Part shown: positions 4,851 through 27,244 of the stretch, piece after piece | Layout: each line of letters opens with the position of its first letter | Numbering within the stretch: the stretch's first letter is position 1 | From: Methylotenera oryzisoli | Lineage (GTDB): Bacteria > Pseudomonadota > Gammaproteobacteria > Burkholderiales > Methylophilaceae | DNA length: 64,000 bases | Reading direction: 5' to 3' | NCBI GenBank assembly: GCA_945907735.1 | Contig: CAMDTL010000001.1 | Coordinates: forward strand, 183,481 to 247,480 | Notes under the pieces: generated by a model | Seen by the model: only the letters and a program-made list of their open reading frames with translations | The model's database searches: none | What the model was told of the DNA's origin: nothing | Translations under genes and position numbers: made by a program

Positions 4851-4876
4851 GTTAAGCTGCTGAATAGAAAGAGAAA

Positions 4877-5602
4877 ATGAACACAATTTTAAAAAAATTA
4901 GCTGTGATTTATTTATTGATGATGAGCCAGTTTGCGCTCGCAGATGAAGCCAGCCTTAAAAAAGCGATTGAAGCGGTGTACCCAAAATTTAAAGTTGAAA
5001 GCGTCGTTAAAACGCCATTTGCAGGCCTGTACGAGGTTTTTATGGGCGGGCAGATTATTTATACCGATGAAAAGCTCACTTTTTTAATCGCAGATGGTAA
5101 TTTGGTCGATCCTAAAACCAAAAAAGACATCACAGGTGAACGTTTAGAAGAATTAACGAAAATTGACTTTAATAGTTTACCGCTAGACCAAGCCATTAAA
5201 GTGGTAAAGGGCAACGGCAGTCGAAAATTGGTCGTGTTCTCAGATGTGGATTGCCCATTTTGCAAGCGTTTGGAGCAGAATGAATTGTCGAATATTGACA
5301 ATGTAACTGTCTATACGTTTTTGTATCCTATTGAACAGTTGCACCCAGATGCGGCGAATAAATCGAAATCTATTTGGTGCGCGAGCAATCGCGTGAAAGC
5401 TTGGAATGACTGGATATTTAGTAATAAACTGCCAAGCACAACTGGTAATTGCGAAGTGCCGCTAGAGCGCGTGGCTGATTTGGCTAGGAAAATTGGTGTG
5501 ACTAGTACGCCAACGCTATTTTTTGCTGATGGCAAGCGCATGCTCGGCGCGCAACCACATAAAGAAATTGAAAAGTATTTGATAGCTGCGGCAAAAAAGT
5601 GA
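4877..5602 (+). CDS. dsbC: DsbC-family thiol:disulfide isomerase
   Basis: Signal peptide; FSDVDCPFCK CxxC motif; TPT motif. Confidence 0.9.
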   Translation: MNTILKKLAVIYLLMMSQFALADEASLKKAIEAVYPKFKVESVVKTPFAGLYEVFMGGQIIYTDEKLTFLIADGNLVDPKTKKDITGERLEELTKIDFNSLPLDQAIKVVKGNGSRKLVVFSDVDCPFCKRLEQNELSNIDNVTVYTFLYPIEQLHPDAANKSKSIWCASNRVKAWNDWIFSNKLPSTTGNCEVPLERVADLARKIGVTSTPTLFFADGKRMLGAQPHKEIEKYLIAAAKK

Positions 5603-5603
5603 T

Positions 5604-5720
5604 TTAGTTGCAAGCAAACAGGGTGGAAGTTCTACCCTCTAGCACAACGCTCCAATACTCAGATTCAAACCGACTATAGTTCAGACTCATTTCTGCATTG
5701 GAATATACTGGCTGTATACT
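5604..5720 (-). pseudogene. Possible decayed remnant of a PuuR-like cupin regulator
   Basis: Minus-strand peptide AEMSLNYSRFESEYWSVVLEGR has the spacing of the PuuR cupin motif (A-D-x8-E-G-E-x3-I-V-L-E-G-R, recalled from memory); divergent from puuD. Confidence 0.35.
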
Positions 5721-5819
5721 TGTAACTGAATTGTTGTAACCCTCAGTCGATGGCAAAAAATAGCATGGTAGTATCACGGTGCGTGCGTAGGTCATGAATA
5801 GGGTTGTTGAAATCAAGCA

Positions 5820-6593
5820 ATGAAAACCAGCAAACGAAAACCAATCGTCATACTGCCATCTGATGTTAAACACATTGGAGAGCAGCCTTTTCATGTGGTT
5901 GGGCAAAAGTATATCTTGGCGGTAGTGCAGGCGGCAGAAGCTATGCCATTGCTAGTACCCGCTATTGGCGATGAGATTGAGATTGATGATTTGCTGTCCG
6001 CCGCTGATGGAATTTTGCTTACCGGATCGCCTTCCAATATACATCCATCCCATTTTGGACAAGCCATACATAATCCTGCGTTGCCATTAGATACTGCGCG
6101 CGATGGCTTAACATTAAAATTAGTTCGCGCGGCAGTTGATGCAGGTGTGCCCTTGTTGGCGATTTGTCGTGGTTTTCAAGAGTTAAATGTGGCGTTTGGT
6201 GGTAGCTTGCATCAGGCGGTGCAAGAGCAAGTAGGCAAGCGCGATCATCGTGAGCCCAAAGATTTACCCCTAGCTGCGCAATACGCGGTGAGTCATGCAG
6301 TCAACTTGGTAGAAAATGGCCAGCTTGCGCGCATTGTCGGCCATGAGCAGATGCTGGTAAATTCGCTGCATGGTCAAGGTATAGATAGGCTGGGAGCGGG
6401 TTTGAGCGTAGAGGCGCATGCGCCTGATGGCTTGGTGGAGGCCGTGCATGTTGATGGCGCCAAGGCTTTTGCACTAGGCGTACAATGGCATCCAGAGTGG
6501 AAAGTGATGGAAAATCCACAGTATTTGGCGATTTTTAAGGCATTTGGTGCGGCTTGCAAAGCTAGAATGCTGAGGCGAATTCCACCCGATTAG
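5820..6593 (+). CDS. puuD: Gamma-glutamyl-gamma-aminobutyrate hydrolase (peptidase C26)
   Basis: LLAICRGFQELNV, VNSLHGQG and GVQWHPE class I amidotransferase motifs. Confidence 0.9.
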   Translation: MKTSKRKPIVILPSDVKHIGEQPFHVVGQKYILAVVQAAEAMPLLVPAIGDEIEIDDLLSAADGILLTGSPSNIHPSHFGQAIHNPALPLDTARDGLTLKLVRAAVDAGVPLLAICRGFQELNVAFGGSLHQAVQEQVGKRDHREPKDLPLAAQYAVSHAVNLVENGQLARIVGHEQMLVNSLHGQGIDRLGAGLSVEAHAPDGLVEAVHVDGAKAFALGVQWHPEWKVMENPQYLAIFKAFGAACKARMLRRIPPD

Positions 6594-6681
6594 TACATGC
6601 GTTTTAATTGAACAAAAAAGCTTATCACAGAGCAATAAAATTTAAACAAAATACCACTACAAGCATGCTGGAGAAAGCAGA

Positions 6682-8067
6682 ATGACAGAGCCTAGAAGCG
6701 TTAACCTTGAAAACTTTGAACTTGCTGACATGGATCGTTGGTTAACCGAGAATAACGTGACCGAAATTGAGTGTTTAGTGCCCGATTTAACTGGGGTAGC
6801 CCGTGGCAAAATTTTACCGCGTGAAAAATTTAGCACTGAACGCGCCATGCGCTTGCCAGAGGCGGTGCTGGGCGTAACGGTTACTGGTGAATCGCCAGAG
6901 GGTCATGCGGGCTATGATAGGGTGATGGGTTTTACCGATAAAGATATGGTGTTGCTGCCCGATCCAACCACCCTTAGGTTAGTGCCTTGGGCGACGGATC
7001 CTACCGCGCAAGTGATTATGGATTGTATGAATCATGATGGCTCACCGATTGATTTTGCGCCGCGTAATGTGTTGCGTGGAGTGACTAATCTTTACAAAAA
7101 CTTGGGTTGGACACCGATTGTGGCACCGGAACTGGAGTTTTATTTGCTGGCACGTAACACTGACCCAGATTTGCCGCTAACGCCGCCAATCGGCCGCAGT
7201 GGCCGCAGAGAAACCAGTCGCCAGTTGTATAGCATAGACGCGGTGAACGAGTTTGATCCGCTATTTGAAGAGATTTACGATTATTGCGAAAGCATGGGCT
7301 TAGAGCTGGATACGCTGATTCACGAATTTGGCGCTGGGCAAATGGAGATCAACTTTTTGCACGGCGAGCCAATGATTTTAGCCGATAAATCCTTCTTTTT
7401 TAAACGTGTGTTGCGCGAAGCTGCCATGCGCCACGACATGTATGCCACATTTATGGCTAAACCAATGCAGCATGAGCCTGGATCGGCCATGCATATTCAT
7501 CAAAGCGTGCTTGACAGCAAAACTGGCCAGAATATTTTCAGCCTGCCAGACGGGTCTGCCTCGCCATTGTTTTTTCACTATATTGCAGGGCTGCAAAAAT
7601 ATTTACCAGCAGCCATGGCGCTGCTAGCGCCTTATGTCAATTCGTATCGTCGCATCGTGCGCGATGGCGCGGCGCCGATTAACATTGAATGGGGTTACGA
7701 TAATCGCACGGTGGGTATCCGTGTGCCTATCTCTGGCTCGGCCGATCGTCGTATTGAAAATCGCGTGGCGGGTGCGGATGCAAACCCATATTTAGCCATG
7801 GCGGCGACATTGGCTTGCGGCTATTTGGGCATTAAAGAAAAACTAACGCCAACAGAAGTGACCACGGGCAGCGCCTACGCGCATGATTACCAATTGCCGC
7901 GCGGATTATCTGAAGCTTTGCGCGCGTTGGAAGAGGCCAAAGCTTTGCATGAAGTATTAGGCAAAAACTTTGTGGATGTATATTTGGCGGTAAAAGAAAC
8001 CGAGCATGATGAATTTATGCGCGTGATTAGCCCGTGGGAACGCGAACATCTTTTAATGCACGTATGA
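6682..8067 (+). CDS. puuA: Gamma-glutamylputrescine synthetase (glutamine synthetase family, PuuA/PauA-like)
   Basis: PDLTGVARGKILP, HEFGAGQMEINF, MAKPMQHEPGSAMHIHQS, ENRVAGADANPY; polyamine operon context. Confidence 0.8.
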   Translation: MTEPRSVNLENFELADMDRWLTENNVTEIECLVPDLTGVARGKILPREKFSTERAMRLPEAVLGVTVTGESPEGHAGYDRVMGFTDKDMVLLPDPTTLRLVPWATDPTAQVIMDCMNHDGSPIDFAPRNVLRGVTNLYKNLGWTPIVAPELEFYLLARNTDPDLPLTPPIGRSGRRETSRQLYSIDAVNEFDPLFEEIYDYCESMGLELDTLIHEFGAGQMEINFLHGEPMILADKSFFFKRVLREAAMRHDMYATFMAKPMQHEPGSAMHIHQSVLDSKTGQNIFSLPDGSASPLFFHYIAGLQKYLPAAMALLAPYVNSYRRIVRDGAAPINIEWGYDNRTVGIRVPISGSADRRIENRVAGADANPYLAMAATLACGYLGIKEKLTPTEVTTGSAYAHDYQLPRGLSEALRALEEAKALHEVLGKNFVDVYLAVKETEHDEFMRVISPWEREHLLMHV

Positions 8068-8123
8068 AAACACTCGCTGATACATGTGTGAAATGCCAAA
8101 GAAATTAAAGAATTGAGAACACC

Positions 8124-9500
8124 TTGACCGACTTGAACAGCAGCAATATACAAGCCATCGATTCCGCGCACTATATGCACCCATTTACCGACCATAAGGG
8201 ATTGGCGGAAAAGGGCGCGCGCATTATCACCAAAGCGGATGCTATCTATATTTGGGATTCTGAAGGCAATAAAATATTAGATGCTATGTCTGGTTTATGG
8301 TGCGTGAATGTGGGCTATGGTCGCAAAGCATTAGTGGACGCGGCTTCCAAGCAAATGCAAACATTGCCTTATTACAATAGTTTTTTTCAAACCACCAATG
8401 TGCCTGCGGTTAAGCTGGCAGAGCGCATGGTAAAACTGGCGGGTGAACATTACAGCCATGTGTTTTTTAGCAGTTCAGGTTCAGAGTCTAACGACACCAA
8501 TATCAAAATGGTACGCCATTATTGGGCAACATTAGGCCAGCCAGAGCGCAAAGTGATTATTTCGCGCAATAATGCTTATCATGGCTCTACCCTGGCGGGA
8601 GGATCTTTAGGCGGCATGGCTGGCATGCATGCGCAAGGCGGCGTGATTCCTGATATTGTGCACATTGAGCAACCCTATCACTATGGTTTGGCGCCTAATG
8701 AAGATAGAGACGCGTTTGGCTTGCGCGCCGCATCATGGTTAGAAACTAAAATTTTAGAAGTCGGTGCAGATAAAGTCGCCGCCTTTATTGGTGAGCCTGT
8801 GCAAGGTGCGGGCGGTGTGATTATTCCACCTAAAACCTATTGGCCTGAGATTCAACGTATCTGCGATAAGTATGGTATTTTGCTGATTTGTGACGAAGTT
8901 ATTTGTGGTTTTGGCCGCGTCGGCAAATGGTTTGGCTCGCAATTAATGGGTGCGAAGCCAGATTTAATGACTTTCGCCAAAGGCGTGACATCAGGCTACT
9001 TGCCCTTAGGCGGCGTGGTAATAGGTAGGCGGATTGCAGAGGTGTTGATAGAAAAAGGCGGTGAATTTAATCATGGCTATACTTACTCAGGGCATCCAGT
9101 GGCCTGTGCCGTGGCGTTGGCAAATATTGATATTTTAGAAAAAGAAGGATTGGTTGACCGTGTGTTCAACGAGACGGGACCCTATTTGGCACAAAAATAT
9201 GCCGAATTAGCGCACCATTCATTGGTGGGTGGGGCTGAGAGCCTTGGCTTAATGGCCGGTTTTGTGTTGATGAAAGATAAAGCAAAACACATTAATTTTG
9301 ACGAAGCGGCAGGCGTAGGCATGATTTGCCGCGGGCACTGTTTTGCCAACGGCTTGATTATGCGCGCCGTGGGCGACCGCATGATTATCGCGCCGCCCTT
9401 GGTATCAACAAAAGCGCAAATTGATGAGATGATGGCGTTAATACACCTGTGTTTAGATGAGACTTTAATCGATTTACAAAAACTAGGCTTAATGGATTAA
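8124..9500 (+). CDS. spuC: Class III PLP omega-aminotransferase (SpuC-like polyamine:pyruvate transaminase), TTG start
   Basis: DAMSGLWCVNVGYGR, DEVICGFGR, FAKGVTSGYLPLG, HGYTYSGHP. Confidence 0.8.
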   Translation: MTDLNSSNIQAIDSAHYMHPFTDHKGLAEKGARIITKADAIYIWDSEGNKILDAMSGLWCVNVGYGRKALVDAASKQMQTLPYYNSFFQTTNVPAVKLAERMVKLAGEHYSHVFFSSSGSESNDTNIKMVRHYWATLGQPERKVIISRNNAYHGSTLAGGSLGGMAGMHAQGGVIPDIVHIEQPYHYGLAPNEDRDAFGLRAASWLETKILEVGADKVAAFIGEPVQGAGGVIIPPKTYWPEIQRICDKYGILLICDEVICGFGRVGKWFGSQLMGAKPDLMTFAKGVTSGYLPLGGVVIGRRIAEVLIEKGGEFNHGYTYSGHPVACAVALANIDILEKEGLVDRVFNETGPYLAQKYAELAHHSLVGGAESLGLMAGFVLMKDKAKHINFDEAAGVGMICRGHCFANGLIMRAVGDRMIIAPPLVSTKAQIDEMMALIHLCLDETLIDLQKLGLMD

Positions 9501-9684
9501 ATTTGTAACATATAGCAAGCTAGTGGTAACAAATGTTATGGCGATTGCTGATGACATGATGTAAGATTGTGTGCAAAGTATAGCTAGATTATGGGTGTTT
9601 TATAGCATTGCTGTGATGCGCAGTGACGCTAAATCGTAAAATTTTGTCATTGTTTTATTAACATTTTTTTAGGAGTAACAAAAT

Positions 9685-10851
9685 ATGAATTTACCTTATA
9701 AAAATATCATGCTTGGTATGCTGCTGGGCATTGCTGGGCTAGGCTTAGTCGCTTGCGGTGATAAGACTGCAGAAACTACAACTTCAGCCGAAACGGCAGT
9801 TGCAGCGCCAGCGGGCGACGAAGAAAAAGTGCTCAACATCTACAACTGGTCAGATTATTTGGCCGAAGACACCATTCCAAATTTTGAAAAAGAAACAGGT
9901 ATTAAAGTGCGTTATGACGTATTTGATAGCAATGAAATTTTGCATGCGAAATTGATGGCTAAAAATACCGGTTACGACATCGTGGTGCCATCTTCAAATT
10001 GGGCGAGATTGCAAATAGATGGCGGCTTATTGCAAAAATTAGATAAATCTAAATTGACCAACTATGGTAATTTAGATCCCGATATTTTGGCGCAAATGGC
10101 AAACTTAGATCCAGACAACGCATACATGGTGGATTGGTTGTGGAGCTACACCACAGTGGGTATTAATGTGGATAAGGTAAAAGCGGCGCTGGGCGATATG
10201 CCCATGCCAGAAAACGCCTGGGATTTAGTGTTTAATCCTAAATACACGTCGAAATTAAAATCATGTGGCATTACGTTTTTAGATGCACCAACAGAAGTAT
10301 TTCCGATTGCGCTTAAATACGTAGGCAAGCCTGCGCACAGCAACAATGCAGATGACTACAAAGTAGCGTATGAAATGCTGGCAAAAGTGCGTCCTGACAT
10401 TCAAAAATTCTCTTCTGGCGGCCAAATTGATGATTTGGCGGGTGGCAATGTTTGCGTGGCATTAGGCTGGGCGGGCGACTTTAACTTAGCGCGCAATCGT
10501 TCCATCGAAAATAAATCCCCACAAAATATTGAAGCCTTAATTACTAGCATGGGCGGCTATATGTTTATGGATACCATGGTGATCCCAGCTGACGCAAAAC
10601 ATGTAGATAATGCACACAAATTTATTAACTACATTTTACGTCCAGAAGTACATGCTGGCCTAACTAATGCAGTGACTTATGCTAATCCAAACAAGGCGGC
10701 AACGCAGTTCGTAGATGAAGAAGTGCGTAATAATAAAACCATTTTCTTACCGGCAGAAGATGTTAAAAAATTGATTCCGCCAGGCAATGTAGATAATGCA
10801 ACACGTCGTGTGATGACGCGTTACTTTACCCAATTCAAAACAGGCGCATAG
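9685..10851 (+). CDS. potF: Polyamine ABC transporter substrate-binding lipoprotein
   Basis: Lipobox LVAC; LNIYNWSDY, DVFDSNE, GYDIVVPS. Confidence 0.9.
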   Translation: MNLPYKNIMLGMLLGIAGLGLVACGDKTAETTTSAETAVAAPAGDEEKVLNIYNWSDYLAEDTIPNFEKETGIKVRYDVFDSNEILHAKLMAKNTGYDIVVPSSNWARLQIDGGLLQKLDKSKLTNYGNLDPDILAQMANLDPDNAYMVDWLWSYTTVGINVDKVKAALGDMPMPENAWDLVFNPKYTSKLKSCGITFLDAPTEVFPIALKYVGKPAHSNNADDYKVAYEMLAKVRPDIQKFSSGGQIDDLAGGNVCVALGWAGDFNLARNRSIENKSPQNIEALITSMGGYMFMDTMVIPADAKHVDNAHKFINYILRPEVHAGLTNAVTYANPNKAATQFVDEEVRNNKTIFLPAEDVKKLIPPGNVDNATRRVMTRYFTQFKTGA

Positions 10852-10861
10852 TTTAAAAATA

Positions 10862-10892
10862 ATTGCGCATGCTACCTAGTGGCATGCGCAAT
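10862..10892 (+). terminator. Stem-loop after potF (mRNA stabiliser or partial terminator)
   Basis: attgcgcatgc-tacctagtg-gcatgcgcaat inverted repeat with no U-tract. Confidence 0.5.
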
Positions 10893-10961
10893 ATATCAAT
10901 ACGCATCTTAAGATTGTTGTAATCAATCAAATGTAATCTGTAGGTAAAAGTCGGGGATAGT

Positions 10962-12092
10962 ATGGCGACAGCATCAAAACCACAAACTGGTATGAAATCG
11001 GCTGAAAAAGAAGAGTTGCTTCGGATTGAAGGTATAAGCAAAATTTACGATGGTACTGTTAAAGCCGTAGATGATGTTTCATTAACAGTTTATAAAGGTG
11101 AAATTTTTGGTTTGCTGGGTGGCTCGGGTTGTGGAAAATCAACGCTACTGCGTATGTTGGCAGGGTTCGAAGCGCCAACCAAGGGTAAAATTTACTTAGC
11201 TGAGCAAGATATTACCAATTTACCCGCCTATCAACGTCCTATCAATATGATGTTTCAATCCTATGCCTTGTTTCCGCACTTAAGCGTATGGGAGAACATT
11301 GCATTTGGTTTAAAGCGTGATGGTATGCCAAAGGACCAAATTGCAGAACGTGTTGAGAAGATGCTTGGTCTGGTGCAATTAACTAAATTTGCACCGCGTA
11401 AACCACATCAACTTTCTGGTGGACAACAACAACGTGTGGCATTGGCACGTAGTTTAGCCAAGCGGCCACAGTTGCTTTTGCTTGATGAGCCACTCGGTGC
11501 ATTGGATAAAAAACTGCGTGAGACCACGCAGTTAGAGTTGGTCAATATTATTGAGCAAGTGGGCGTAACTTGTGTATTGGTGACGCATGACCAAGAAGAA
11601 GCCATGACCATGGCTAGCCGTATTGCGGTGATGAGTGAGGGTTATTTTTTACAAGTGGGTGATCCTGACACCGTATATGAAATGCCAAACAGTCGCAAAG
11701 TCGCTGATTTTATTGGCAATGTGAACATGTTTGAAGGTGTGATTGAAGAAGATGAGCCAGACCATGTTACGGTGCGTAGTTTAGAGTGTATACATTATGT
11801 AGGGCATGGTATTAGCGGGCATGCTGGTATGCAGGTGGGGGTGGCATTGCGCCCAGAAAAAGTCATGCTATCCAAAAGAAAACCAAAAGGTGACTACAAT
11901 TGGGCTGAAGGTGAAGTAATCGAGATTGTGTATTTTGGCGCACATACAACTTACCACCTTAAGCTTGCTAGTGGCATGGTACTTAAAGCACAAGAGATCA
12001 ACAGTACGCGCGATTTAAGCTGTGGACTGACTTGGGGCGATAAGGCTTATGCGCACTGGAGCAATGAGGCCATGGTAGTGTTAACTCAATAA
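10962..12092 (+). CDS. potG: Polyamine ABC transporter ATPase
   Basis: GGSGCGKS Walker A, LSGGQQQR signature, LLLLDE; TOBE-like C-terminus. Confidence 0.9.
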   Translation: MATASKPQTGMKSAEKEELLRIEGISKIYDGTVKAVDDVSLTVYKGEIFGLLGGSGCGKSTLLRMLAGFEAPTKGKIYLAEQDITNLPAYQRPINMMFQSYALFPHLSVWENIAFGLKRDGMPKDQIAERVEKMLGLVQLTKFAPRKPHQLSGGQQQRVALARSLAKRPQLLLLDEPLGALDKKLRETTQLELVNIIEQVGVTCVLVTHDQEEAMTMASRIAVMSEGYFLQVGDPDTVYEMPNSRKVADFIGNVNMFEGVIEEDEPDHVTVRSLECIHYVGHGISGHAGMQVGVALRPEKVMLSKRKPKGDYNWAEGEVIEIVYFGAHTTYHLKLASGMVLKAQEINSTRDLSCGLTWGDKAYAHWSNEAMVVLTQ

Positions 12093-12102
12093 GAGGTGTG
12101 CA

Positions 12103-13014
12103 ATGGCTCAATCTAAAAACACATTTCTTAACTTTTTCAGCGGGCGCAAGCTCATTATTGGCGTGCCATATGTTTGGTTTATCTCACTGGCCGCTATTCC
12201 GTTGCTTATCGTGCTCAAAATCAGCCTTTCTACTATGGAGACAGCTTCAGTCTCTAACATGGTAGATTGGAGCAAGGGCTGGCCATCGCTCACGCTTAAT
12301 TTTAGTAGCTATCAATTTATTGCCAGCGATGCGCTATATGTTAAAACCTATCTCTCATCCATAAAATATGCGCTGATTACCACCATCATTTGTTTGGCGA
12401 TTGGCTACCCATTTGCTTACTTTATGGCAAGGGCACCCAAGCATATTCAACCTACCTTATTAATGTTAATTATGCTGCCATTTTGGACATCATTCTTATT
12501 GCGAATTTATGCATGGAAAACATTGCTGGTAAATAATGGCATTATTAATAACGCGCTAATCAGTTTAGGCGTGATGAGTGAACCTATTGCCATGATGAAT
12601 ACGCCGTTTTCGTTGACCATAGGCATGGTATATTCGTACTTGCCCTTTATGATTTTGCCTTTGTATGCCAATTTATCTAAGCTGGATATTCGTTACTTAG
12701 AAGCGGCGGCTGACTTAGGTACCAGCCCACTAAAAACTTTTTGGTTGGTGACGGTGCCACTCTCTAAGGCGGGCATTATTGCAGGTTCAATGTTGGTGTT
12801 TATTCCTTCCATTGGCGAATACGTTATTCCTGAATTATTGGGTGGGTCAAATACGCTCATGATAGGTCGTGTGCTGTGGGATGAATTCTTTAGCAATAAT
12901 GATTGGCCGATGGCTTCTGCCGTGGCTATCGTGATGATACTGCTGATACTGGTGCCGATGGCTTTACTCAATAAATATCAATCAGACCAGGCATCAGATA
13001 AAGCGGGAGCCTAG
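12103..13014 (+). CDS. potH: Polyamine ABC transporter permease
   Basis: LPFWTSFLLRIYAW; EAAADLG EAA loop. Confidence 0.9.
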   Translation: MAQSKNTFLNFFSGRKLIIGVPYVWFISLAAIPLLIVLKISLSTMETASVSNMVDWSKGWPSLTLNFSSYQFIASDALYVKTYLSSIKYALITTIICLAIGYPFAYFMARAPKHIQPTLLMLIMLPFWTSFLLRIYAWKTLLVNNGIINNALISLGVMSEPIAMMNTPFSLTIGMVYSYLPFMILPLYANLSKLDIRYLEAAADLGTSPLKTFWLVTVPLSKAGIIAGSMLVFIPSIGEYVIPELLGGSNTLMIGRVLWDEFFSNNDWPMASAVAIVMILLILVPMALLNKYQSDQASDKAGA

Positions 13015-13016
13015 CC

Positions 13017-13862
13017 ATGAGCCATGGATTAAACAAATATTTTGGCAAGGCATGGATGCTGGCAGTCTATATGTTTTTATACTTGCCAATCGTCACACTG
13101 GTGATCTATTCATTTAACGATTCTAAGTTGGTAACGGTATGGAGCCACGCTAGTTTGCGCTGGTATAGCGCCTTGGCAGCAGATGCCGATTTAATTTCTG
13201 CAGTTTGGTTGTCATTGAAAATTGCCTTTGTTTCGGCGCTTATGTCAGTGTTTTTTGGTACGTTTGTGGCGTTTGCGCTTAATCGCTATAAGCGGTTTGT
13301 CGGTCGCACGTTTTTGTCATCGATGGCCAACATGCCATTGGTGATGCCAGAGGTGATCGTCGGCTTGGCCCTGTTGCTAATGTTGGTTTCTGTGCAGCAT
13401 TGGCTGGGATTCCCCGAGCGTGGTTTATTTACCATTTTGTTGGGCCATGCGTTGCTAGGCACGGCTTATGCGGCGGTAGTGGTGACATCGCGCTTAAAGG
13501 AGATGGATGGGCGCTTAGATGAAGCGGCCATGGATTTGGGCAGCAAGCCATGGCAAGTGTTTACGCTAGTCACTTTCCCCTTGCTTGTCCCTGCACTGGT
13601 TTCAGCTTTTTTGCTTACCTTCACCTTGTCGTTTGACGACGTAGTGTTGTCAGCTTTCTTATCTGGCCCAGGTTATAACACCATGCCGATGGTGATATTC
13701 TCACGCGCGCGGCTGGGTTTAAACCCTACCATTAATGCAGTAGCCACTGTCACCATTACGGTAGTGACGATTGCAGTGATCGCTTCCAGTTTTTACACCT
13801 CGCACGTGGAGCGCAAACGCAAACGTGAAATGGCCTTGGCTTACAGCGATGCCATCAGGTAA
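13017..13862 (+). CDS. potI: Polyamine ABC transporter permease
   Basis: FLYLPI..YSFN; DEAAMDLG; FTLSFDD. Confidence 0.9.
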   Translation: MSHGLNKYFGKAWMLAVYMFLYLPIVTLVIYSFNDSKLVTVWSHASLRWYSALAADADLISAVWLSLKIAFVSALMSVFFGTFVAFALNRYKRFVGRTFLSSMANMPLVMPEVIVGLALLLMLVSVQHWLGFPERGLFTILLGHALLGTAYAAVVVTSRLKEMDGRLDEAAMDLGSKPWQVFTLVTFPLLVPALVSAFLLTFTLSFDDVVLSAFLSGPGYNTMPMVIFSRARLGLNPTINAVATVTITVVTIAVIASSFYTSHVERKRKREMALAYSDAIR

Positions 13863-13901
13863 CATAAAACAAATAATGGGAAATATTAGTAGAATCATTG
13901 A

Positions 13902-15374
13902 ATGACATCACAAACTATAGCGTTAAAGCATTCTGCCTTACTAAAACCTAGCCAAACCCTATTGGCGGGAGCTTGGTTAGGTGCCGACTCTGGTGAAATA
14001 ATACAGGTCACTAATCCTGCCAATGGCTTGGTAGTGGGTGCAGTGCCACGTATGGGCAAAGCTGAAACCGAGCGTGCCATTCAATCGGCAGAAGCTGCGC
14101 AGAAATTGTGGAAAAATCTCACAGCAGCGGCGCGCGCGGCGATTCTTAAGCGCTGGTTTGATTTAGTCAAATTACACGCTGAAGATTTAGCACAAATTCT
14201 CACGGCCGAACAAGGCAAGCCCTTAGCTGAAGCGCGTGGCGAAGTGAGTTATGGCGCTAGTTTTATCGAATGGTTCGCTGAGGAAGCTAAACGTGTGTAC
14301 GGCGAGACGATTCCAAGTCCTGCTAACGACCGCCGCTTGCTAGTGATTAAGCAGCCGATTGGGGTCACTGTCGCTATTACGCCGTGGAATTTCCCCATGG
14401 CTATGATTACACGAAAAGCCGCGCCAGCATTGGCTGCTGGCTGTACGATGATTATCAAACCCGCCGAACAAACGCCGTTATCTGCGATAGCGCTGGCGGT
14501 GTTGGCAGAAGAAGCTGGCGTGCCAGCTGGCGTGCTACAAGTGATTACGGGTAAAGCGCGTGAAATAGGCGCGGTGCTGACTGCAAGCCCGATTGTGAGT
14601 AAACTTTCATTCACAGGCTCTACCGAAGTGGGTCGCATTTTAATGCGCCAGTGCGCCGATAGCATTAAAAAATTGTCGCTGGAATTGGGCGGTAACGCGC
14701 CATTTATTGTGTTTGATGATGCTGATTTGGACGCCGCTGTGGAAGGCGCGATGATTAGCAAATTCCGCAATGCTGGTCAGACTTGCGTGTGTGCAAATCG
14801 TTTATTTGTACAAGATGGCGTATTTGACACATTTGCCGCAAAACTAGCCGCAAAAGTGTCCGCATTAAAAGTGGGTGATGGCACTACAGAGGGCGTGACA
14901 CAAGGACCGCTGATAGATGCGGTAGCGATTGAAAAAATTGAAGGTCACGTGGCTGATGCTGTTAAAAAAGGTGCAAAACTCATGCAAGGCGGCAGGCGTC
15001 ATGCCCTAGGCGGTACTTATTTTGAGCCAACTGTGCTGGCTGATGTGACGGCTGATTCGCTTATATTTAGCGAAGAAACGTTTGGCCCTGTGGCGCCATT
15101 GTTCCGCTTTAAAACAGATGATGAAGTGATAGAGTTGGCAAATCGTACCGAGTTCGGCTTGGCCTCTTATTTCTACAGTCGCGATATTGGTCGCATTTGG
15201 CGCGTGGCAGAAGCGCTTGAATACGGCATGGTGGGTGTGAATACAGGCATGATTTCCAACGAAGTAGCACCGTTTGGTGGCGTTAAACAATCAGGGCTGG
15301 GGCGTGAAGGTTCGCACCATGGCATCGATGAGTATTTAGAAATTAAGTACATCGCCATGGCAGGGCTTGCATAA
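13902..15374 (+). CDS. gabD: NAD(P)-dependent succinate-semialdehyde dehydrogenase
   Basis: LELGGNAPF, KFRNAGQTCVCAN, PFGGVKQSGLGREGS. Confidence 0.9.
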   Translation: MTSQTIALKHSALLKPSQTLLAGAWLGADSGEIIQVTNPANGLVVGAVPRMGKAETERAIQSAEAAQKLWKNLTAAARAAILKRWFDLVKLHAEDLAQILTAEQGKPLAEARGEVSYGASFIEWFAEEAKRVYGETIPSPANDRRLLVIKQPIGVTVAITPWNFPMAMITRKAAPALAAGCTMIIKPAEQTPLSAIALAVLAEEAGVPAGVLQVITGKAREIGAVLTASPIVSKLSFTGSTEVGRILMRQCADSIKKLSLELGGNAPFIVFDDADLDAAVEGAMISKFRNAGQTCVCANRLFVQDGVFDTFAAKLAAKVSALKVGDGTTEGVTQGPLIDAVAIEKIEGHVADAVKKGAKLMQGGRRHALGGTYFEPTVLADVTADSLIFSEETFGPVAPLFRFKTDDEVIELANRTEFGLASYFYSRDIGRIWRVAEALEYGMVGVNTGMISNEVAPFGGVKQSGLGREGSHHGIDEYLEIKYIAMAGLA

Positions 15375-15493
15375 GTGGCTACAATGGCACATTTCTGTGT
15401 TACGCGGTACTCGCTTGCTCGCCGTACAGCCCTGCACTGTCTCGGAATCTGTGCTCCGTGTGCCTTGAACTGCATCCATCTCACCCACTTATG
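15370..15493. repeat. MITE-like element (same family as 389 and 25250)
   Basis: cataagtgg / ccacttatg terminal inverted repeats; core gttacgcggtactcgc...gtac...tctcgg...ctccgtgtgcctt shared with the 25250 copy. Confidence 0.7.
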
Positions 15494-15510
15494 TTACATG
15501 GAAAATTGCA

Positions 15511-17007
15511 ATGGATAGTAAGGTTGACATTGATTGGCACGCACGTGCTAAAACACTGAAAATTGACGGCCGCGCCTTTATTAACGGCAAGCGTGTCAAT
15601 GCGGCTGGTGGCGCGACATTTGAATGCTTTTCACCGATTGATAGTCGCAAACTCACCGATGTCGCCAGTTGCAAATCCGCCGATGTTGATTTGGCTGTTG
15701 TTGCTGCACGCGCGGCGTTTAATGATAGGCGTTGGGCAGGTTTAAGTCCGCGCGAACGCAAGCAAACCATGGTTAAGTTTGCTGATTTAATTCTCACCAA
15801 CCGTGAAGAATTGGCGCTGTTAGAAACCTTGGACATGGGCAAACCAATTACCGCCAGCCTAAATGTGGACGTTGCTTCCGCCGCCAATACCATACGCTGG
15901 TTTGCTGAGGCGATAGACAAAGTGTACGATGAAATCGCACCAACGGCAGAGCATACCTTAGCGATGATTACGCGTGAACCCATGGGCGTGGTGGGAGCAA
16001 TTGTGCCGTGGAATTATCCTATTGCGATGGCCGCGTGGAAAATCGCGCCAGCGTTGGCGGCAGGCAATAGTGTGGTGTTAAAACCATCGGAAAAATCACC
16101 ACTCACTGCGCTTAAATTAGGCGATTTGGCGCTACAAGCAGGCGTACCTGCTGGCGTGCTGAACGTGATTCCAGGATTCGGTACCGAAGCTGGTTCGCCG
16201 CTGGCGCTGCACATGGATGTGGATTGCATCGCGTTTACCGGCTCGACTGGCGTGGGTAAAAAAATTCAAGTGATGGCTGGGCAAAGCAATTTGAAGCGCG
16301 CTTGGTGCGAGCTGGGCGGCAAGTCGCCCAACATCGTGTTTGCCGATTGCCAAGACATGGATAAAGCGGCAGCAGCTTCCGCCGCTTCGATTTTTTACAA
16401 TCAGGGTGAAAGCTGCAACGCGCCTTCGCGTTTGCTGGTTGAGCGTTCGATTAAAGACGTGTTCGTTAAAAAAATACTGGCTGAACTTAAAAACTATCAG
16501 CCTGGTGACCCGCTGGATGCGGACACCAGCATGGGCGCGCTGGTGGATTGCGGGCAGATGGAAACCGTGTTGAGATATATTGCAATAGGCAGGCTGGAAG
16601 GCGCGAGTCTACTGGCTGGTGGCGCTAGGGTAAGAAGTGAAACAGGCGGTTTTTATATCACCCCGACCGTATTTGATGACGTCAACAATAGCATGAAAAT
16701 TGCCGCTGAAGAGATTTTCGGCCCTGTACTCTCTATTATTGCTTTCGACACAGAAAAAGAGGCGATAAAAATTGCCAATGATACACAATATGGTTTAGCA
16801 GCAGCAGTGTGGACGCGCGATATTTCGCGTGCGCACTTGGTGGCACGTGCTTTGCGCGTGGGCACTGTGCATGTGAACAGTTACGATGAAGATGATATTA
16901 CCGTGCCATTTGGTGGTTTTAAACAAAGCGGCAATGGGCGTGATAAATCGTTGCACGCGCTAGAGAAATACACGGAGCTAAAAACGACTTGGATTCGCCT
17001 TAATTAA
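15511..17007 (+). CDS. puuC: Gamma-glutamyl-gamma-aminobutyraldehyde dehydrogenase
   Basis: AEAIDKVYDEIAPT, AGQSNLKRAWCELGGKSPNIV, GRDKSLHALEKY. Confidence 0.9.
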   Translation: MDSKVDIDWHARAKTLKIDGRAFINGKRVNAAGGATFECFSPIDSRKLTDVASCKSADVDLAVVAARAAFNDRRWAGLSPRERKQTMVKFADLILTNREELALLETLDMGKPITASLNVDVASAANTIRWFAEAIDKVYDEIAPTAEHTLAMITREPMGVVGAIVPWNYPIAMAAWKIAPALAAGNSVVLKPSEKSPLTALKLGDLALQAGVPAGVLNVIPGFGTEAGSPLALHMDVDCIAFTGSTGVGKKIQVMAGQSNLKRAWCELGGKSPNIVFADCQDMDKAAAASAASIFYNQGESCNAPSRLLVERSIKDVFVKKILAELKNYQPGDPLDADTSMGALVDCGQMETVLRYIAIGRLEGASLLAGGARVRSETGGFYITPTVFDDVNNSMKIAAEEIFGPVLSIIAFDTEKEAIKIANDTQYGLAAAVWTRDISRAHLVARALRVGTVHVNSYDEDDITVPFGGFKQSGNGRDKSLHALEKYTELKTTWIRLN

Positions 17008-17016
17008 GGATATATC

Positions 17017-17154
17017 ATGAACAAATTAACCGACCCAATGTTGACTAATCGAGACCTGCACAATCGCCGCTTGGCCGCCACTCCACTCACCATTCAAGAC
17101 CATGTGTTTGATGAAGCGCTGGATATACTAGGCCGCGCATTAACGAAAGTTTAG
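17017..17154 (+). pseudogene. puuE: 4-aminobutyrate aminotransferase (puuE/gabT) collapsed by internal deletion to a 45-aa N+C fusion
   Basis: AAGGA RBS then MNKLTDPMLTNRDLHNRRLAATP|LTIQDHVFDEALDILGRALTKV*; the halves match the PuuE start (..HQRRLSATP) and end (PLTIPDAQFD..). Confidence 0.85.
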
Positions 17155-17157
17155 CCA

Positions 17158-18513
17158 ATGGATGATGCTACAAAACAAATTAGCGCGATAGAAGCCACTA
17201 AAACAAAGCTGGCGGCGGCTGGCGTGCACACTGTCATCGCGCAGTTTGTCGATATTCACGGCGCAGCCAAAGGTAAATATATTCCGATCGCACATTTAGA
17301 GGACATTCTCGGCGCTGGCGCGGGTTTTGCTGGCCCCTCCATTTGGGGCACGGGCTTGCCGCGTACGGGTGCGCGCGCTGAGTTTTATGGTCAGGGTGAT
17401 TTAAGTACTTTGCAAGCACTGCCTTGGATGCCAGGCTATGCGCGGATTGTTTGCAATGGTGTCGTTGATGGGAAACCGTTTGATGGTTGCTCGCGCCGTG
17501 TTTTGCTCAAACAAATTGCGCGGCTCAATAAACTAGGGCTTACGTTGAATGTGGGTATCGAGCCAGAGTTTTTTCTGTTCAATACAGACGAGAATGGCCG
17601 ACCAGTTGTTTGCGCTAAAGATCACCAAGACAAACCTTCTTACGACTTGCAAGCATTGGCGCGAGTGCGCGACGTGCTACGTTGCATGGAGACTGGCTTA
17701 ACAGCGTGTGGTTTTGATGTATTTCAAATCGATCACGAAGACGCTAGCGGCCAATATGAGCTGAATTATCACTACAGCGATGCGTTAAAGGCCGCTGACC
17801 GCTTTATTTTGTTCAAAATGGCGGCTAGTCATATTGCGGAAGAAGCAGGATTGCTTTTTTCTCTAATGCCAAAACCCTTTGCAGATCGCCCTGGTAGTGG
17901 CTTGCATCTACATTTGTCGCTTACCGATGCCAGTGGCAATGCGGTGATGGCGGACAAAGCTGACTCGCACGGACTGTCCAAAATCGGTCGTGAATGCATT
18001 GCGGGTTTGTTGGCGCACAGCCCAGCATTGGCAGCTTTTCACGCGCCATCGGTTAATTCTTACAAACGTTTGGTCATCGGTCGCTCACTTTCTGGTACCA
18101 CCTGGGCGCCCGCACACATTGGCTGGGGCTATAACAATCGCACTACAGTTTTACGCGCAGTGGCGGGGCGCATGGAGTTTCGCCTAACCGATGGTAGCAG
18201 CAATATCTATGCGGCGCTGGCCTCCACCATCGCCGCTATGTTAGATGGTGTGGAGCAAAATATGGCGCCGCCCGTGCCGATAGATGAAGATATTTACGAG
18301 TGGGAAGATGCACAATTTAAACGCCATCGCGTCAAAACTTTGCCGCAAACTTTGGGTGAAGCGCTCGTAGCTTTAGGCGAAGATTCCGCGTTGGCTAAGG
18401 CGCTGGGCGAAGATTATGTGGCAGAATATCTCGCCACCAAAACGCCAGAATGGATAGATTATTGCCGCTCAGTTAGCGATTGGGAATACAAACGTTATTT
18501 AACTTGGCCTTAA
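17158..18513 (+). CDS. glnT: Type III glutamate-ammonia ligase family protein (GlnT / gamma-glutamylmethylamide synthetase-like paralogue)
   Basis: AQFVDIHGAAK, GAGFAGPSIWGTG, QIDHEDASGQYE, MPKPFADRPGSG, NSYKRLVIGRSLSGTTWAP, VSDWE. Confidence 0.8.
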   Translation: MDDATKQISAIEATKTKLAAAGVHTVIAQFVDIHGAAKGKYIPIAHLEDILGAGAGFAGPSIWGTGLPRTGARAEFYGQGDLSTLQALPWMPGYARIVCNGVVDGKPFDGCSRRVLLKQIARLNKLGLTLNVGIEPEFFLFNTDENGRPVVCAKDHQDKPSYDLQALARVRDVLRCMETGLTACGFDVFQIDHEDASGQYELNYHYSDALKAADRFILFKMAASHIAEEAGLLFSLMPKPFADRPGSGLHLHLSLTDASGNAVMADKADSHGLSKIGRECIAGLLAHSPALAAFHAPSVNSYKRLVIGRSLSGTTWAPAHIGWGYNNRTTVLRAVAGRMEFRLTDGSSNIYAALASTIAAMLDGVEQNMAPPVPIDEDIYEWEDAQFKRHRVKTLPQTLGEALVALGEDSALAKALGEDYVAEYLATKTPEWIDYCRSVSDWEYKRYLTWP

Positions 18514-18520
18514 CGCTTAA

Positions 18521-18649
18521 GACGATGCCTCTGTAACGCTTATGGATATTGACGTGCAAGGCTTTTTGTGCGAGGCCTATGCTACACATGATGCTAATGA
18601 TGTAAGCCACCTAGGTGGCTGGCGTAATCATTTGAAACAAATTGCATAA
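18521..18649 (+). pseudogene. C-terminal remnant of allophanate hydrolase (AtzF-like)
   Basis: VQGFLCEAYATHDANDVSHLGGWRNHL* matches the AtzF C-terminal pattern V-x-GF-[LI]-CE...DI-[ST]-x-[FY]-GGWR-x-YL. Confidence 0.7.
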
Positions 18650-18675
18650 AGTAGAAGGGGGCGAGCCAAAGTAAA

Positions 18676-18766
18676 TGATATTTTCGCCTGCGAGCCTAGA
18701 CCGACCTTATATTTTCACTTGCGAGCCTAGCTTGGCTTATATCCTTACTTGAGAACCTAGTTCTAC
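18676..18766 (-). repeat. Degenerate ~30-bp tandem triplication of the kup 3' end
   Basis: ttatatccttacttgagaacctagttctac (18737-66), ttatattttcacttgcgagcctagcttggc (18707-36), tgatattttcgcctgcgagcctagaccgacc (18676-706). Confidence 0.7.
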
Positions 18767-20620
18767 TACGCGATTCGGTGGTAATTTGAATTGATTGGTA
18801 ATGGTTTCTGCGCTGCGGAATAAGCCGATAAAGATTTTTTTACGCCAATAGGCCATGCCCGATTTTTCGCTGGCGATTAAAATTTCTTTGCCAATAAAAA
18901 ACGAGGTATTCATCGCGTCAAAAATCAAGCCATATTTATTGCACAACTCTAAGTCACGTGGTAAATCAGGCTCGTCTTTGAACCCGTAGTTAATGATCAC
19001 ACGATAAAACTCATACGGTAAAGCCTCTACGCTGATACGTTCGGCTAAGTTGGTATGTGGGTAATCTGAAAAGCGCACGGTTAAAATGACTACTTTTTCG
19101 TGCAACACTTTGTTATGTTTTAAATTATGTAACATGGCATGCGGCACGCCTTCCTGATTAGGCGTCATAAACAGTGCCGTACCAGGCACGCGTGTAGGCG
19201 GGTGCGCGCTGATAGAGTGGATAAAAGGCGTGAGTTCCATCGCCTCAGATTTTAATCGCTTGTAGAGTAAATACCTGCCATTTTTCCAGGTAAGCATGAG
19301 CACAAAAATGATAGCGCCAATGAGTAATGGCACCCAGCCACCATCAGGTATTTTCAATACGTTAGCGCTAAAAAACGCTAAATCGACCACTAAAAATAGC
19401 GCTATCAGCAAGCCCGTTTTAAGTTTGTTCCAACCCCAAATTTCGCGAAATACTACTGCGGCTAGCAAGGTGGTAATGACCATATCGCCAGTTACAGCAA
19501 TGCCATAGGCTGCTGCCAAATTGCCAGAGCTACCAAAACCAATCACCAGCGCCATCACCCCCAGCATTAAACCCCAATTAACGCGTGGCATATATACTTG
19601 GCCTTGCTCGCTTTCTGAAGTGTGTTGTATGTGCATGCGTGGTAAATAGCCCAATTGCAGCGCTTGGCGTGACACTGAGAACGCGCCAGTAATCACCGCT
19701 TGTGAGGCAATGACAGTGGCCAATGTGGCTAGCCCAATCAGTGGGAACAGCGCCCATTCTGGAGCAAGTAGGTAAAATGGATTTTTAACTGCGCTGACAT
19801 CGCGCAAAATAAGGCTACCTTGACCGAAGTAGTTTAATAATAAGGCTGGAAATACAAAGCCAAACCAAGCCAAGCGAATAGGAAAACGGCCAAAATGACC
19901 CATATCTGCATATAAGGCTTCTGCACCAGTTACCGCCAGTACTACTGCACCCAAAGCCACAAATGCGATTTTTGGTTGCTGCATAAAAAAATCAAGCGCA
20001 TAAAAAGGGTTAAGTGCTTTGAGTATGCTGGCATCGTGTGCAATATTGATGGCGCCCAGCACGCCCAAGGCACCAAACCACAGTAGCATGACAGGACCAA
20101 AAAATTTTCCTACGATGGCGGTACCCTTGCTTTGCGCCAAAAATAGGCAAAACAACACCAATAAAGTAATGGGTACAATAAAGTGGTGCAGGTGTGGCGC
20201 GGCGATTTCTAAGCCTTCTACCGCTGATAATACTGAGATTGCCGGTGTAATCATGCCATCGGCATAAAACATACAGGCGCCCAAAATACCTAAAAACATA
20301 ATGTTGCGCTGTTTTATTTTATTGCCTTCGACATTGCGGCTGGCGAGCGCAAGCAAGGCCATAATGCCACCTTCGCCGCGATTGTCGGCGCGCATAATAA
20401 ACGCTACGTATTTAACCGAAACGATGAGAATTAATGCCCAAGTGATGAGGGACAAAATGCCGTAAACATTGCCTGTATTGAGTGCTAAAGGGTGATGCCC
20501 GACAGAAAAAACTTCTTTCATGGTGTATAAAGGGCTGGTACCAATATCGCCGAACACAACGCCCAGCGCGGCCAGTGCCATGGTATGCAGTGCGGTTTTT
20601 TGAGGGGTGTTATTATTCAT
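18737..20620 (-). CDS. kup: KUP/HAK/KT potassium uptake transporter
   Basis: ALGVVFGDIGTSPLY, DNRGEGG, GAEALYADMGHFG. Confidence 0.95.
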   Translation of the reverse strand: MNNNTPQKTALHTMALAALGVVFGDIGTSPLYTMKEVFSVGHHPLALNTGNVYGILSLITWALILIVSVKYVAFIMRADNRGEGGIMALLALASRNVEGNKIKQRNIMFLGILGACMFYADGMITPAISVLSAVEGLEIAAPHLHHFIVPITLLVLFCLFLAQSKGTAIVGKFFGPVMLLWFGALGVLGAINIAHDASILKALNPFYALDFFMQQPKIAFVALGAVVLAVTGAEALYADMGHFGRFPIRLAWFGFVFPALLLNYFGQGSLILRDVSAVKNPFYLLAPEWALFPLIGLATLATVIASQAVITGAFSVSRQALQLGYLPRMHIQHTSESEQGQVYMPRVNWGLMLGVMALVIGFGSSGNLAAAYGIAVTGDMVITTLLAAVVFREIWGWNKLKTGLLIALFLVVDLAFFSANVLKIPDGGWVPLLIGAIIFVLMLTWKNGRYLLYKRLKSEAMELTPFIHSISAHPPTRVPGTALFMTPNQEGVPHAMLHNLKHNKVLHEKVVILTVRFSDYPHTNLAERISVEALPYEFYRVIINYGFKDEPDLPRDLELCNKYGLIFDAMNTSFFIGKEILIASEKSGMAYWRKKIFIGLFRSAETITNQFKLPPNRVVELGSQVRI

Positions 20621-27220: not shown

Positions 27221-27244
27221 AATTTTTTCTTAAAGGGGCGAAGC

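Follow-up and report, generated by a model that had tools for sequence, protein, structure and literature searches.

Several glutamine synthetase (GS)-like ligases per organism are normal in Pseudomonas aeruginosa, which has seven PauA paralogues. Its spuABCDEFGH genes form one operon, and SpuC deaminates both putrescine and gamma-glutamylputrescine (PMC10606097). The puu system of Escherichia coli (puuP-puuA/puuDRCBE) comprises the ligase PuuA, the oxidase PuuB, the dehydrogenase PuuC, the hydrolase PuuD and the transaminase PuuE, together with the symporter PuuP and PuuR. Putrescine uptake and degradation have already been noted in Methylotenera versatilis 301, and streamlining of the Methylophilaceae, including the loss of nitrogen-acquisition genes, has been described (PMC6794327). 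Here, we analyzed a 64,000-nucleotide stretch of the Methylotenera oryzisoli genome (G000:C1:183481-247480; referred to as the window), which carries on its plus strand a polyamine cluster running from puuD to a second GS-like ligase gene, GS2. The initial annotation had considered this cluster a mosaic amine-scavenging island and the best candidate in the window for an undescribed system. What we observed instead is gene decay in a known pathway and not a new system. The region is probably the Methylotenera version of the Pseudomonas spu/pau-type and E. coli puu-type clusters for putrescine uptake and catabolism, situated in a reduced genome that appears to be losing genes by deletion.

Gene content and comparison with known systems

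The genome analyzed consists of 1.42 Mb in 18 contigs, is 88% complete, and has a G+C content of 45.6%; its congeners measure 1.7 to 2.6 Mb. The contig carrying the cluster (C1) is 258 kb long. All absences reported below apply to the assembled 88% of the genome. Genes were identified by NCBIfam and Pfam profile searches of the window proteins, and the functions given are homology based. These searches bore out the gene order that had been read from the DNA, puuD-puuA-spuC-potFGHI-gabD-puuC-scar-ligase-scar on one strand (Table 1). The open reading frame (ORF) map shows eleven plus-strand genes between positions 5820 and 18513, all of them intact; these genes amount to ~12 kb together and are full length, without a single frameshift or internal stop codon.

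The closest known system is spuABCDEFGH of P. aeruginosa together with the pau genes for gamma-glutamylation (pauA/pauB/pauC/pauD), and the next closest is E. coli puu. As in the Pseudomonas type, a peptidase C26 hydrolase, a GS-like ligase, a polyamine:pyruvate transaminase and a putrescine-type ATP-binding cassette (ABC) importer are contiguous and codirectional. The order of the SpuA hydrolase, the GS-like SpuB/PauA2 ligase, SpuC and the PotF-type importer on one strand is shared with P. aeruginosa (PMC10606097), and in both organisms the oxidase (PauB there, PuuB here) is encoded apart from the operon. In contrast to the spu operon, which has two binding proteins (SpuD and SpuE), the cluster encodes one, and in Methylotenera it continues, codirectionally, with gabD, pauC/puuC, gabT and a second ligase. 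This second ligase is of the GmaS lineage and not of the PauA lineage. A further difference is that the regulator found in relatives is of the MocR type, and that the present genome has neither gabT nor this regulator. The supposed undescribed system is of the Pseudomonas spuABC-transporter type, extended by gabD, puuC, gabT and GS2.

With E. coli puu the cluster shares homologues of PuuA, PuuB, PuuC and PuuD and a PuuR-like protein, and the chemistry from glutamylation to gamma-aminobutyrate (GABA) should match. It differs from puu in having an ABC importer in place of the PuuP symporter, in the addition of SpuC, in the reduction of PuuE/GabT to 45 codons, and in the location of PuuB and the PuuR-like gene on a separate contig. 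All four enzymes were detected at full length by tblastn, with identities to the E. coli proteins of 37% (PuuA), 40% (PuuB, on contig C2), 55% (PuuC) and 43% (PuuD); because their scores lie under the NCBIfam equivalog cut-offs, they represent family-level homology, with orthology unproven. The first ligase, GS1, aligns with E. coli PuuA over 440 amino acids and is 91 to 94% identical to its counterparts in relatives. Against solved structures, SpuC scored 621 bits with a putrescine aminotransferase (6gwi) and 581 bits with a polyamine:pyruvate transaminase (9j4z); among the members of its class, at 330 to 379 bits, are entries annotated as 4-aminobutyrate transaminase and as plant gamma-aminobutyrate transaminase POP2. 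The binding protein scored best with E. coli PotF (364 bits), followed by SpuD (333 bits), SpuE (299 bits) and three PotD-type entries (188 to 192 bits).

In order to place the arrangement, we compared 17 named Methylophilaceae loci with GS2, eight genome loci, and one locus from another family. The synteny comparison did not support a mosaic origin. The order puuD-GS1-spuC-potFGHI-gabD-puuC-gabT-GS2, with an intact gabT, is present in all 17 named loci and also in the eight genome loci. The genome from another family of the order has the same arrangement, likewise with an intact gabT, and a GS2 that is 58% identical. The conservation of gabT-GS2 adjacency everywhere indicates that GS2 is the regular last gene of the cluster and not a fragment that a deletion brought over from a second cluster. 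The proposal that deletions had fused a polyamine operon to the remains of another nitrogen-scavenging cluster thus holds in part: gabT and a nitrogen-scavenging cluster have been deleted and the tail of a hydrolase gene is left, but GS2 is no relic, as it adjoins gabT in 17 of 17 loci.

As an accessory unit, the polyamine cluster occurs in about half of the genus. The best-matching relative varies by gene: GS1 is 94% identical to that of L016, PotG, PotH and PotI are 95 to 96% identical to those of L047 (synonymous divergence [dS], 0.4 to 0.8), and PuuC is 93% identical to that of L041 (dS, 0.30). This pattern suggests that homologous recombination between Methylotenera species may have occurred within the cluster.

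The gabT remnant and the GABA step

Between puuC and GS2, relatives encode a GabT of 426 to 445 amino acids that scores 599 to 613 bits on TIGR00700 (cut-off, 507 bits). In the present genome, this position is occupied by a 45-codon ORF that corresponds, in frame, to the first ~22 and the last ~22 codons of the relatives' gabT, which confirms the puuE/gabT scar recognized initially. Its start codon, its stop codon and the 3-nt spacing to the ATG of GS2 are preserved. Alignment to the closest relative (L041) revealed an in-frame gabT deletion of 1155 bp (385 codons) with a 2-nt CC microhomology at the junction. Positions 16953-17084 correspond to the end of puuC and the first gabT codons (92%), and positions 17083-17200 correspond to the last gabT codons and the start of GS2 (87%). 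The 45 encoded amino acids, compared with the ~420 of a class III aminotransferase domain, gave no Pfam match, and only a 23-residue C-terminal segment matched GabT models (E = 0.001-0.05). The ORF does not belong to the GabT family (TIGR00700), and the Puu pathway is left without its dedicated PuuE/GabT.

Since the genome is a draft in 18 contigs and 88% complete, the gabT deletion or the hydrolase junction downstream of GS2 might be an assembly or binning error, or a variant carried by a minority of the population. We regard this as highly improbable. The gabT junction is clean and in frame, lies on the 258-kb contig, and has flanks that are both 87 to 92% identical to the relative. Moreover, an internal deletion of 1155 bp without a repeat, with merely 2 nt of microhomology, is not a usual assembler error, and the independent losses of the MocR-type regulator, a transaminase, a carboxylase cluster and pgm all agree in direction. 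Judged by this alignment, a real deletion has evidently taken 385 internal codons of gabT in frame.

We found no second gabT in the assembly (TIGR00700, E <= 1e-100), and the best match to E. coli PuuE in the genome is ArgD, at 35% identity. When gabT copy number was surveyed with TIGR00700 in 46 congeners and the present genome, gabT was found as a single copy in 27 of the 46, only within the polyamine cluster, and the present genome had none. In a first sample, all 13 GS2-positive congeners carried gabT, and the present genome is the only one of 14 GS2-bearing genomes in the gabT-less state. With gabT single copy and confined to the cluster throughout the genus, and without a copy in the assembled part of this genome, the canonical GABA step is severed, in agreement with the initial annotation.

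The consequences for the pathway can be outlined. By homology with the puu pathway of E. coli and the spu/pau pathway of Pseudomonas (PMC10606097), PotFGHI would import putrescine, from which two routes could lead to GABA. In the first, SpuC would transaminate putrescine with pyruvate, and an aminobutyraldehyde dehydrogenase encoded on contig C2 would then act on the product. In the second, GS1 would gamma-glutamylate putrescine, PuuB (encoded on C2) or SpuC would deaminate the product, PuuC would oxidize it, and PuuD would free GABA and glutamate. In relatives, GabT and GabD would carry GABA to succinate. In the present genome the dedicated GabT step would be dead, and either GABA would accumulate or a promiscuous pyruvate-dependent omega-aminotransferase (SpuC or an AptA-like enzyme encoded on C2) would convert it to succinate semialdehyde. 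Without GabT or such a bypass, the second putrescine nitrogen would not be recovered as glutamate, and the carbon would stop short of succinate.

The gene for the partner enzyme, gabD, is intact despite the loss of gabT. Its product is full length and 82 to 91% identical to that of relatives, with pairwise ratios of nonsynonymous to synonymous divergence (dN/dS) of 0.03 to 0.05; an omega-aminotransferase bypass would explain its retention. Across the cluster genes the pairwise ratio (omega) is 0.03 to 0.11 and dS is mostly >1 or undefined, and this saturation makes recent relaxed selection on gabD or other genes undetectable by pairwise dN/dS.

An adaptive origin for this state was also considered, in which deletions gave rise to a streamlined unit selected for harvesting nitrogen from diamines and small alkylamines, the succinate branch being deliberately cut and GABA being an end product or being rerouted via SpuC. 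The in-frame deletion, with start, stop and spacing kept, leaves translation downstream undisturbed; the 11 remaining genes are intact with low dN/dS; the rest of the assembly yielded no gabT; and the genome is small, in a family of known streamliners (PMC6794327). However, chance alone puts one deletion in three in frame, and the loss of GabT forfeits the second putrescine nitrogen (as glutamate), which is the opposite of a better nitrogen harvest. The retention of gabD would be senseless if the succinate branch had been selected against, and the state occurs in a single genome of the 14 that bear GS2, without the recurrence that would suggest selection. The loss of the regulator and of unrelated genes (pgm and the urea carboxylase cluster) is fitted better by a general deletion bias. 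We therefore consider an adaptive origin unlikely. The regulator loss, these unrelated losses, the small genome and the documented streamlining of the family (PMC6794327) together argue for reductive evolution rather than for a purpose-built nitrogen harvester.

The second ligase, GS2

The ligase at the end of the cluster had been taken as glnT/gmaS-like, a candidate methylamine-glutamylating enzyme. The genuine GmaS of the organism is encoded elsewhere, on contig C3, amid sarcosine-oxidase-like (mgd) and glutamate-synthase-like (mgs) genes; TIGR03105 gives it 628 bits, and its score with the solved glutamate-methylamine ligase 9qur is 859 bits. Separately, we observed that this C3 locus (L002, G000:C3:22000-41999) contains a complete-looking N-methylglutamate pathway at positions 3386-12763, with soxB-like and soxA-like dehydrogenase subunits, GmaS (8434-9768), and amidotransferase-like and glutamate-synthase-like subunits.

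GS2 and this GmaS are 52% identical, and GS2 scores 460 bits with 9qur. With the GmaS of the N-methylglutamate pathway (9qur, 7cql), it shares the NCBIfam family and the pocket and catalytic residues (PMC7948447). It passes the TIGR03105 cut-off (Table 1), and it retains the RhGmaS methylamine-pocket residues Tyr147, Gln175, Asp177, Glu179, Glu186, Asn188 and Lys30', as well as Arg312 and Trp300, according to the amine-pocket and catalytic residues described for RhGmaS (PMC7948447). The GS residue Asp50' and the Glu-flap residues are absent from GS2. By these features, GS2 would thus act like a GmaS-type small-amine ligase.

Unlike GmaS, GS2 has no mgsABC or mgdABCD neighbors, these genes flanking the C3 ligase instead. 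Its orthologues, 79 to 92% identical, stand directly after gabT in every locus examined, and in three lineages an AptA-type beta-alanine/omega-aminotransferase module follows GS2. A wide protein search with GS2 returned, among the best 120 matches, only uncharacterized Methylophilaceae-type orthologues with at least 74% identity, named "glutamine synthetase" or "type III glutamate--ammonia ligase."

These observations bear on whether GS2 might be a second, redundant GmaS for methylamine with no role in polyamine metabolism. Its score above the family cut-off, its identity to the genuine GmaS and its complete set of RhGmaS pocket and catalytic residues would be expected of such an enzyme. Nevertheless, GS2 never adjoins mgs or mgd and is always the last polyamine-cluster gene, behind gabT. 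On TIGR03105 it falls 138 bits short of the true GmaS, and in the loop equivalent to the GS Asp50' loop two residues are inserted and others are altered. Together with the AptA-type module behind GS2 in three lineages, these features make a redundant methylamine ligase improbable. The fixed position of GS2 in the polyamine cluster argues for a physiological substrate other than methylamine, and GS2 is most likely a GmaS-derived ligase of the polyamine cluster that would glutamylate another small primary amine or diamine.

Regulator, upstream region and the C2 module

In relatives, a divergent MocR-family regulator gene lies upstream of puuD, preceded by Lrp and a DadA-DadX-RidA-transaminase (PRK07046-type)-agmatinase-PuuB arrangement. 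The MocR-type protein of one relative (G022) gave no tblastn match anywhere in the present genome, and no remnant of it was detected in the window or the genome (E <= 1e-3). This agrees with the earlier reading that no intact regulator is present. The likeness of this protein to GabR, the MocR-family pyridoxal phosphate-dependent regulator of gabTD in Bacillus subtilis, lies in gene context only, the relatives' MocR gene being divergent and beside an operon with gabT and gabD. In contrast to GabR, the relatives' protein scores best on MocR and PdxR models (GabR model, 318 bits; cut-off, 600 bits), and it is absent from the present genome.

The intergenic region upstream of puuD keeps a 30-bp block (positions 5714-5743) that is 88 to 90% identical to the MocR-puuD intergenic region of relatives by blastn and contains a TTGTAAC direct repeat; this block may have been left behind as an orphan operator or promoter element. 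A promoter-like site is present at 5680-5709, but sites of this kind are no more frequent in the region than expected by chance: a promoter scan of positions 5400-19000 gave 27 sites compared with 23.2 in shuffled sequence, and a terminator scan of the same interval gave 18 sites compared with 17.6, both at chance level. Intergenic gaps within the cluster range from 2 to 184 nt.

Orthologues of DadA, DadX, RidA, agmatinase and PuuB are found on contig C2 (76 to 90% identity), and no orthologous match to the PRK07046-type transaminase was found in the assembly. The initial annotation had reported that a PuuB oxidase was missing. This is correct for the cluster but not for the genome, as C2:61209-62498 encodes a full-length homologue that shares 40% identity with E. 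coli PuuB across 430 amino acids. The DadA on C2 was discarded as a candidate for the missing oxidase, because DadA is a D-amino acid dehydrogenase (676 bits); the DAO-family gene that comes next, adjoining the agmatinase gene, encodes the PuuB homologue. C2 also encodes a PuuR-like cupin-helix-turn-helix (HTH) protein with 31% identity to E. coli PuuR. As a separate observation, the surrounding C2 region (L001/L125, G000:C2:48000-66000) constitutes a second amine-catabolism locus with genes for methylmalonate-semialdehyde dehydrogenase, an AptA-like omega-aminotransferase, the PuuR-like cupin-HTH regulator, aminobutyraldehyde dehydrogenase, DadA, DadX, RidA, agmatinase and the PuuB-like oxidase, and in relatives parts of this locus border the polyamine cluster on both sides.

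A dispersed repeat of 124 bp with 18-nt terminal inverted repeats is inserted in the gap between gabD and puuC. Four diverged copies (71 to 74%) are located elsewhere in the genome (C1:208746, C5, C6 and C12), and none was found in the loci of 16 relatives. Its predicted fold is no better than that of shuffled sequences (z = -1.2), giving no sign of a structured RNA or terminator. The element looks like a small dispersed repeat of the miniature inverted-repeat transposable element (MITE) or repetitive extragenic palindromic (REP) kind.

Assuming that the lost MocR-type regulator activated transcription, in the manner of GabR at gabTD, the cluster might no longer be induced and might be silent, with gabT as the first structural gene to be lost. 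The absence of MocR while its intergenic target block is kept, the gabT deletion, the insertion of a repeat seen in the present genome only, and the loss of other nearby genes would all accord with a silent cluster. Against this, eleven full-length genes with no frameshift or stop over ~12 kb would be unlikely after long silence under a strong deletion bias. In addition, the PuuR-like repressor on C2 could control the cluster, and the promoter-like site upstream of puuD remains, though of the kind that occurs at chance frequency. Silencing is, in our judgment, quite unlikely.

The allophanate hydrolase remnant and the downstream junction

Directly downstream of GS2, the second scar proposed initially was verified as the 3' end of an allophanate hydrolase gene. 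The match to PF21986 (AH_C; positions 18521-18646) scores 31.8 bits (cut-off, 27 bits) and covers profile positions 88-122 of 123; on TIGR02713, positions 528-562 of 563 are covered. DNA identity to the 3' ends of the relatives' allophanate hydrolase genes is 82 to 84%. As it has neither an amidase-signature domain nor a complete C-terminal domain, this sequence is a remnant and not an allophanate hydrolase (TIGR02713) gene.

In relatives, the intact cluster consists of an ABC transporter, GS3 (a third type III GS-like ligase), UAAP1, UAAP2, urea carboxylase and allophanate hydrolase. This urea (guanidine) carboxylase-allophanate hydrolase cluster is full there, whereas only the C-terminal tail of the hydrolase survives here; urea carboxylase, UAAP1, UAAP2 and GS3 were not found in the present assembly. 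The relatives' cluster occupies a locus apart from both GS2 and kup, and none of 25 GS2, 7 hydrolase and 4 kup loci had the hydrolase cluster next to GS2 or kup. In most Methylotenera genomes, we also noted, the allophanate hydrolase is encoded by two overlapping ORFs in different frames (~445 amino acids for the amidase and ~138 for the C-terminal part, with a 17-nt overlap; e.g., L039, 8581-10318), while in three genomes both parts fall in one match of ~582 to 585 amino acids with one internal stop. The two-ORF form might reflect a gene that is naturally split, a site of recoding or a frameshift that these genomes have in common.

The kup gene follows the remnant, on the opposite strand, and the kup-xseA block is syntenic at another place in a relative (G042). 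The position of the hydrolase tail between GS2 and the kup-xseA block indicates a rearrangement or deletion junction. Three tandem copies of ~30 nt echo the kup 3' end, with 91% and 68% identity to the reference copy in the repeat search; the two copies that lie outside kup resemble each other (91%) more closely than they resemble the end of the live gene (68%). These echoes mark the edge of a rearranged block. In relatives, GS2 is followed by a two-partner secretion pair and/or pgm, or, in the three lineages mentioned above, by the AptA module instead. No pgm (phosphoglucomutase) orthologue was found in the assembly, the best match being 26% identical. The genes that lie past pgm in relatives (a 158-amino-acid ORF and phosphomannomutase) are present here at window positions ~26942-28639.

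An exact 9-bp direct repeat, TAACGCTTA, occurs at positions 18511 and 18534 (18511-18542). Its first copy overlaps the GS2 stop codon and its second directly precedes the hydrolase remnant. The repeat was rejected as the basis of a simple deletion mechanism, since a mechanism of that kind, recombining one direct repeat with the other, would retain a single copy, whereas both are still present.

Table 1. Positions of the polyamine cluster genes, remnants and adjoining features in the window
Feature	Position	Strand	Evidence or remarks
Intergenic region upstream of puuD	5603-5819	.	Keeps 30-bp block of relatives' MocR-puuD spacer
PuuD/SpuA-like gamma-glutamyl-GABA hydrolase (peptidase C26)	5820-6593	+	PF07722, 232 bits; NF008471, 192.6 bits (cut-off 266, not reached)
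GS1, PuuA/SpuB(PauA)-like gamma-glutamyl-polyamine ligase	6682-8067	+	Gln-synt_C, 357 bits; below every NCBIfam equivalog cut-off
SpuC-type polyamine:pyruvate aminotransferase	8124-9500	+	NF005682, 769 bits (cut-off 510)
PotF-PotG-PotH-PotI putrescine-type ABC importer	9685-10851, 10962-12092, 12103-13014, 13017-13862	+	Best NCBIfam matches PotF/G/H/I
GabD succinate-semialdehyde dehydrogenase	13902-15374	+	TIGR01780, 734 bits (cut-off 646)
Dispersed repeat, 124 bp	15370-15493	.	18-nt terminal inverted repeats; inserted in gabD/puuC gap
PuuC/PauC-like gamma-glutamyl-aminobutyraldehyde dehydrogenase	15511-17007	+	NF007352, 677 bits (cut-off 850, not reached)
gabT remnant, 45 codons	17017-17154	+	Fusion of gabT ends
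GS2, GmaS-family (type III) gamma-glutamyl ligase paralogue	17158-18513	+	TIGR03105, 489.5 bits (cut-off 469.6)
Allophanate hydrolase C-terminal remnant, last ~35-42 codons and stop (~105 bp)	18521-18649	+	PF21986 (AH_C) match
Three ~30-nt tandem copies echoing kup 3' end (last codons)	18678-18760	.	Repeat search; spacing 31 and 30 nt
kup	18737-20620	-	Downstream of hydrolase remnant

Discussion

Compared with its relatives, the present genome has lost the core of gabT, the MocR-type regulator, a neighboring transaminase and the urea/guanidine carboxylase cluster, and the agmatinase-PuuB-DadAX module, adjacent to the cluster in relatives, lies on C2. These changes are what lead us to favor a spu/pau- and puu-type putrescine cluster undergoing reduction.

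Several points weigh against this interpretation or limit it. All functions have been assigned by homology, and for GS1, PuuC and PuuD the scores lie under the NCBIfam equivalog cut-offs. Relaxed selection is neither seen nor excludable, because dS is saturated. With its regulator lost, the operon might not be expressed at all. Because the assembly is 88% complete, MocR and a second gabT are "not found" rather than proven to be absent. Finally, no relative examined has the hydrolase cluster beside GS2 or kup.

A tentative extension, which we hold to be rather doubtful, would give GS2 a more specific part. The ligase, of the methylamine (GmaS) lineage, may have been recruited into Methylophilaceae polyamine catabolism for a polyamine-derived amine, for instance 1,3-diaminopropane or a different short diamine or alkylamine, feeding an AptA/beta-alanine branch. 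In the present genome, the loss of GabT and MocR might then have left a constitutive half-pathway, from which GABA would be excreted or passed to GabD by a promiscuous pyruvate-dependent omega-transaminase.

On the favored interpretation, a spu/pau- and puu-type cluster in decay, the locus is explained: behind the appearance of a new, mosaic system for scavenging amines stands a polyamine cluster that is conserved as an accessory unit in Methylotenera and is in reductive evolution. It provides a clean, datable case of streamlining in the Methylophilaceae, with the precise in-frame loss of an enzyme, the loss of a regulator and rearranged surroundings. The substrate of GS2 is one biochemical question of some value, since environmental Methylophilaceae commonly carry this GmaS paralogue, in each case at the end of the polyamine cluster. 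As a natural gabT knockout in which gabD is kept, the organism is usable for asking if these methylotrophs exploit polyamines for nitrogen only.

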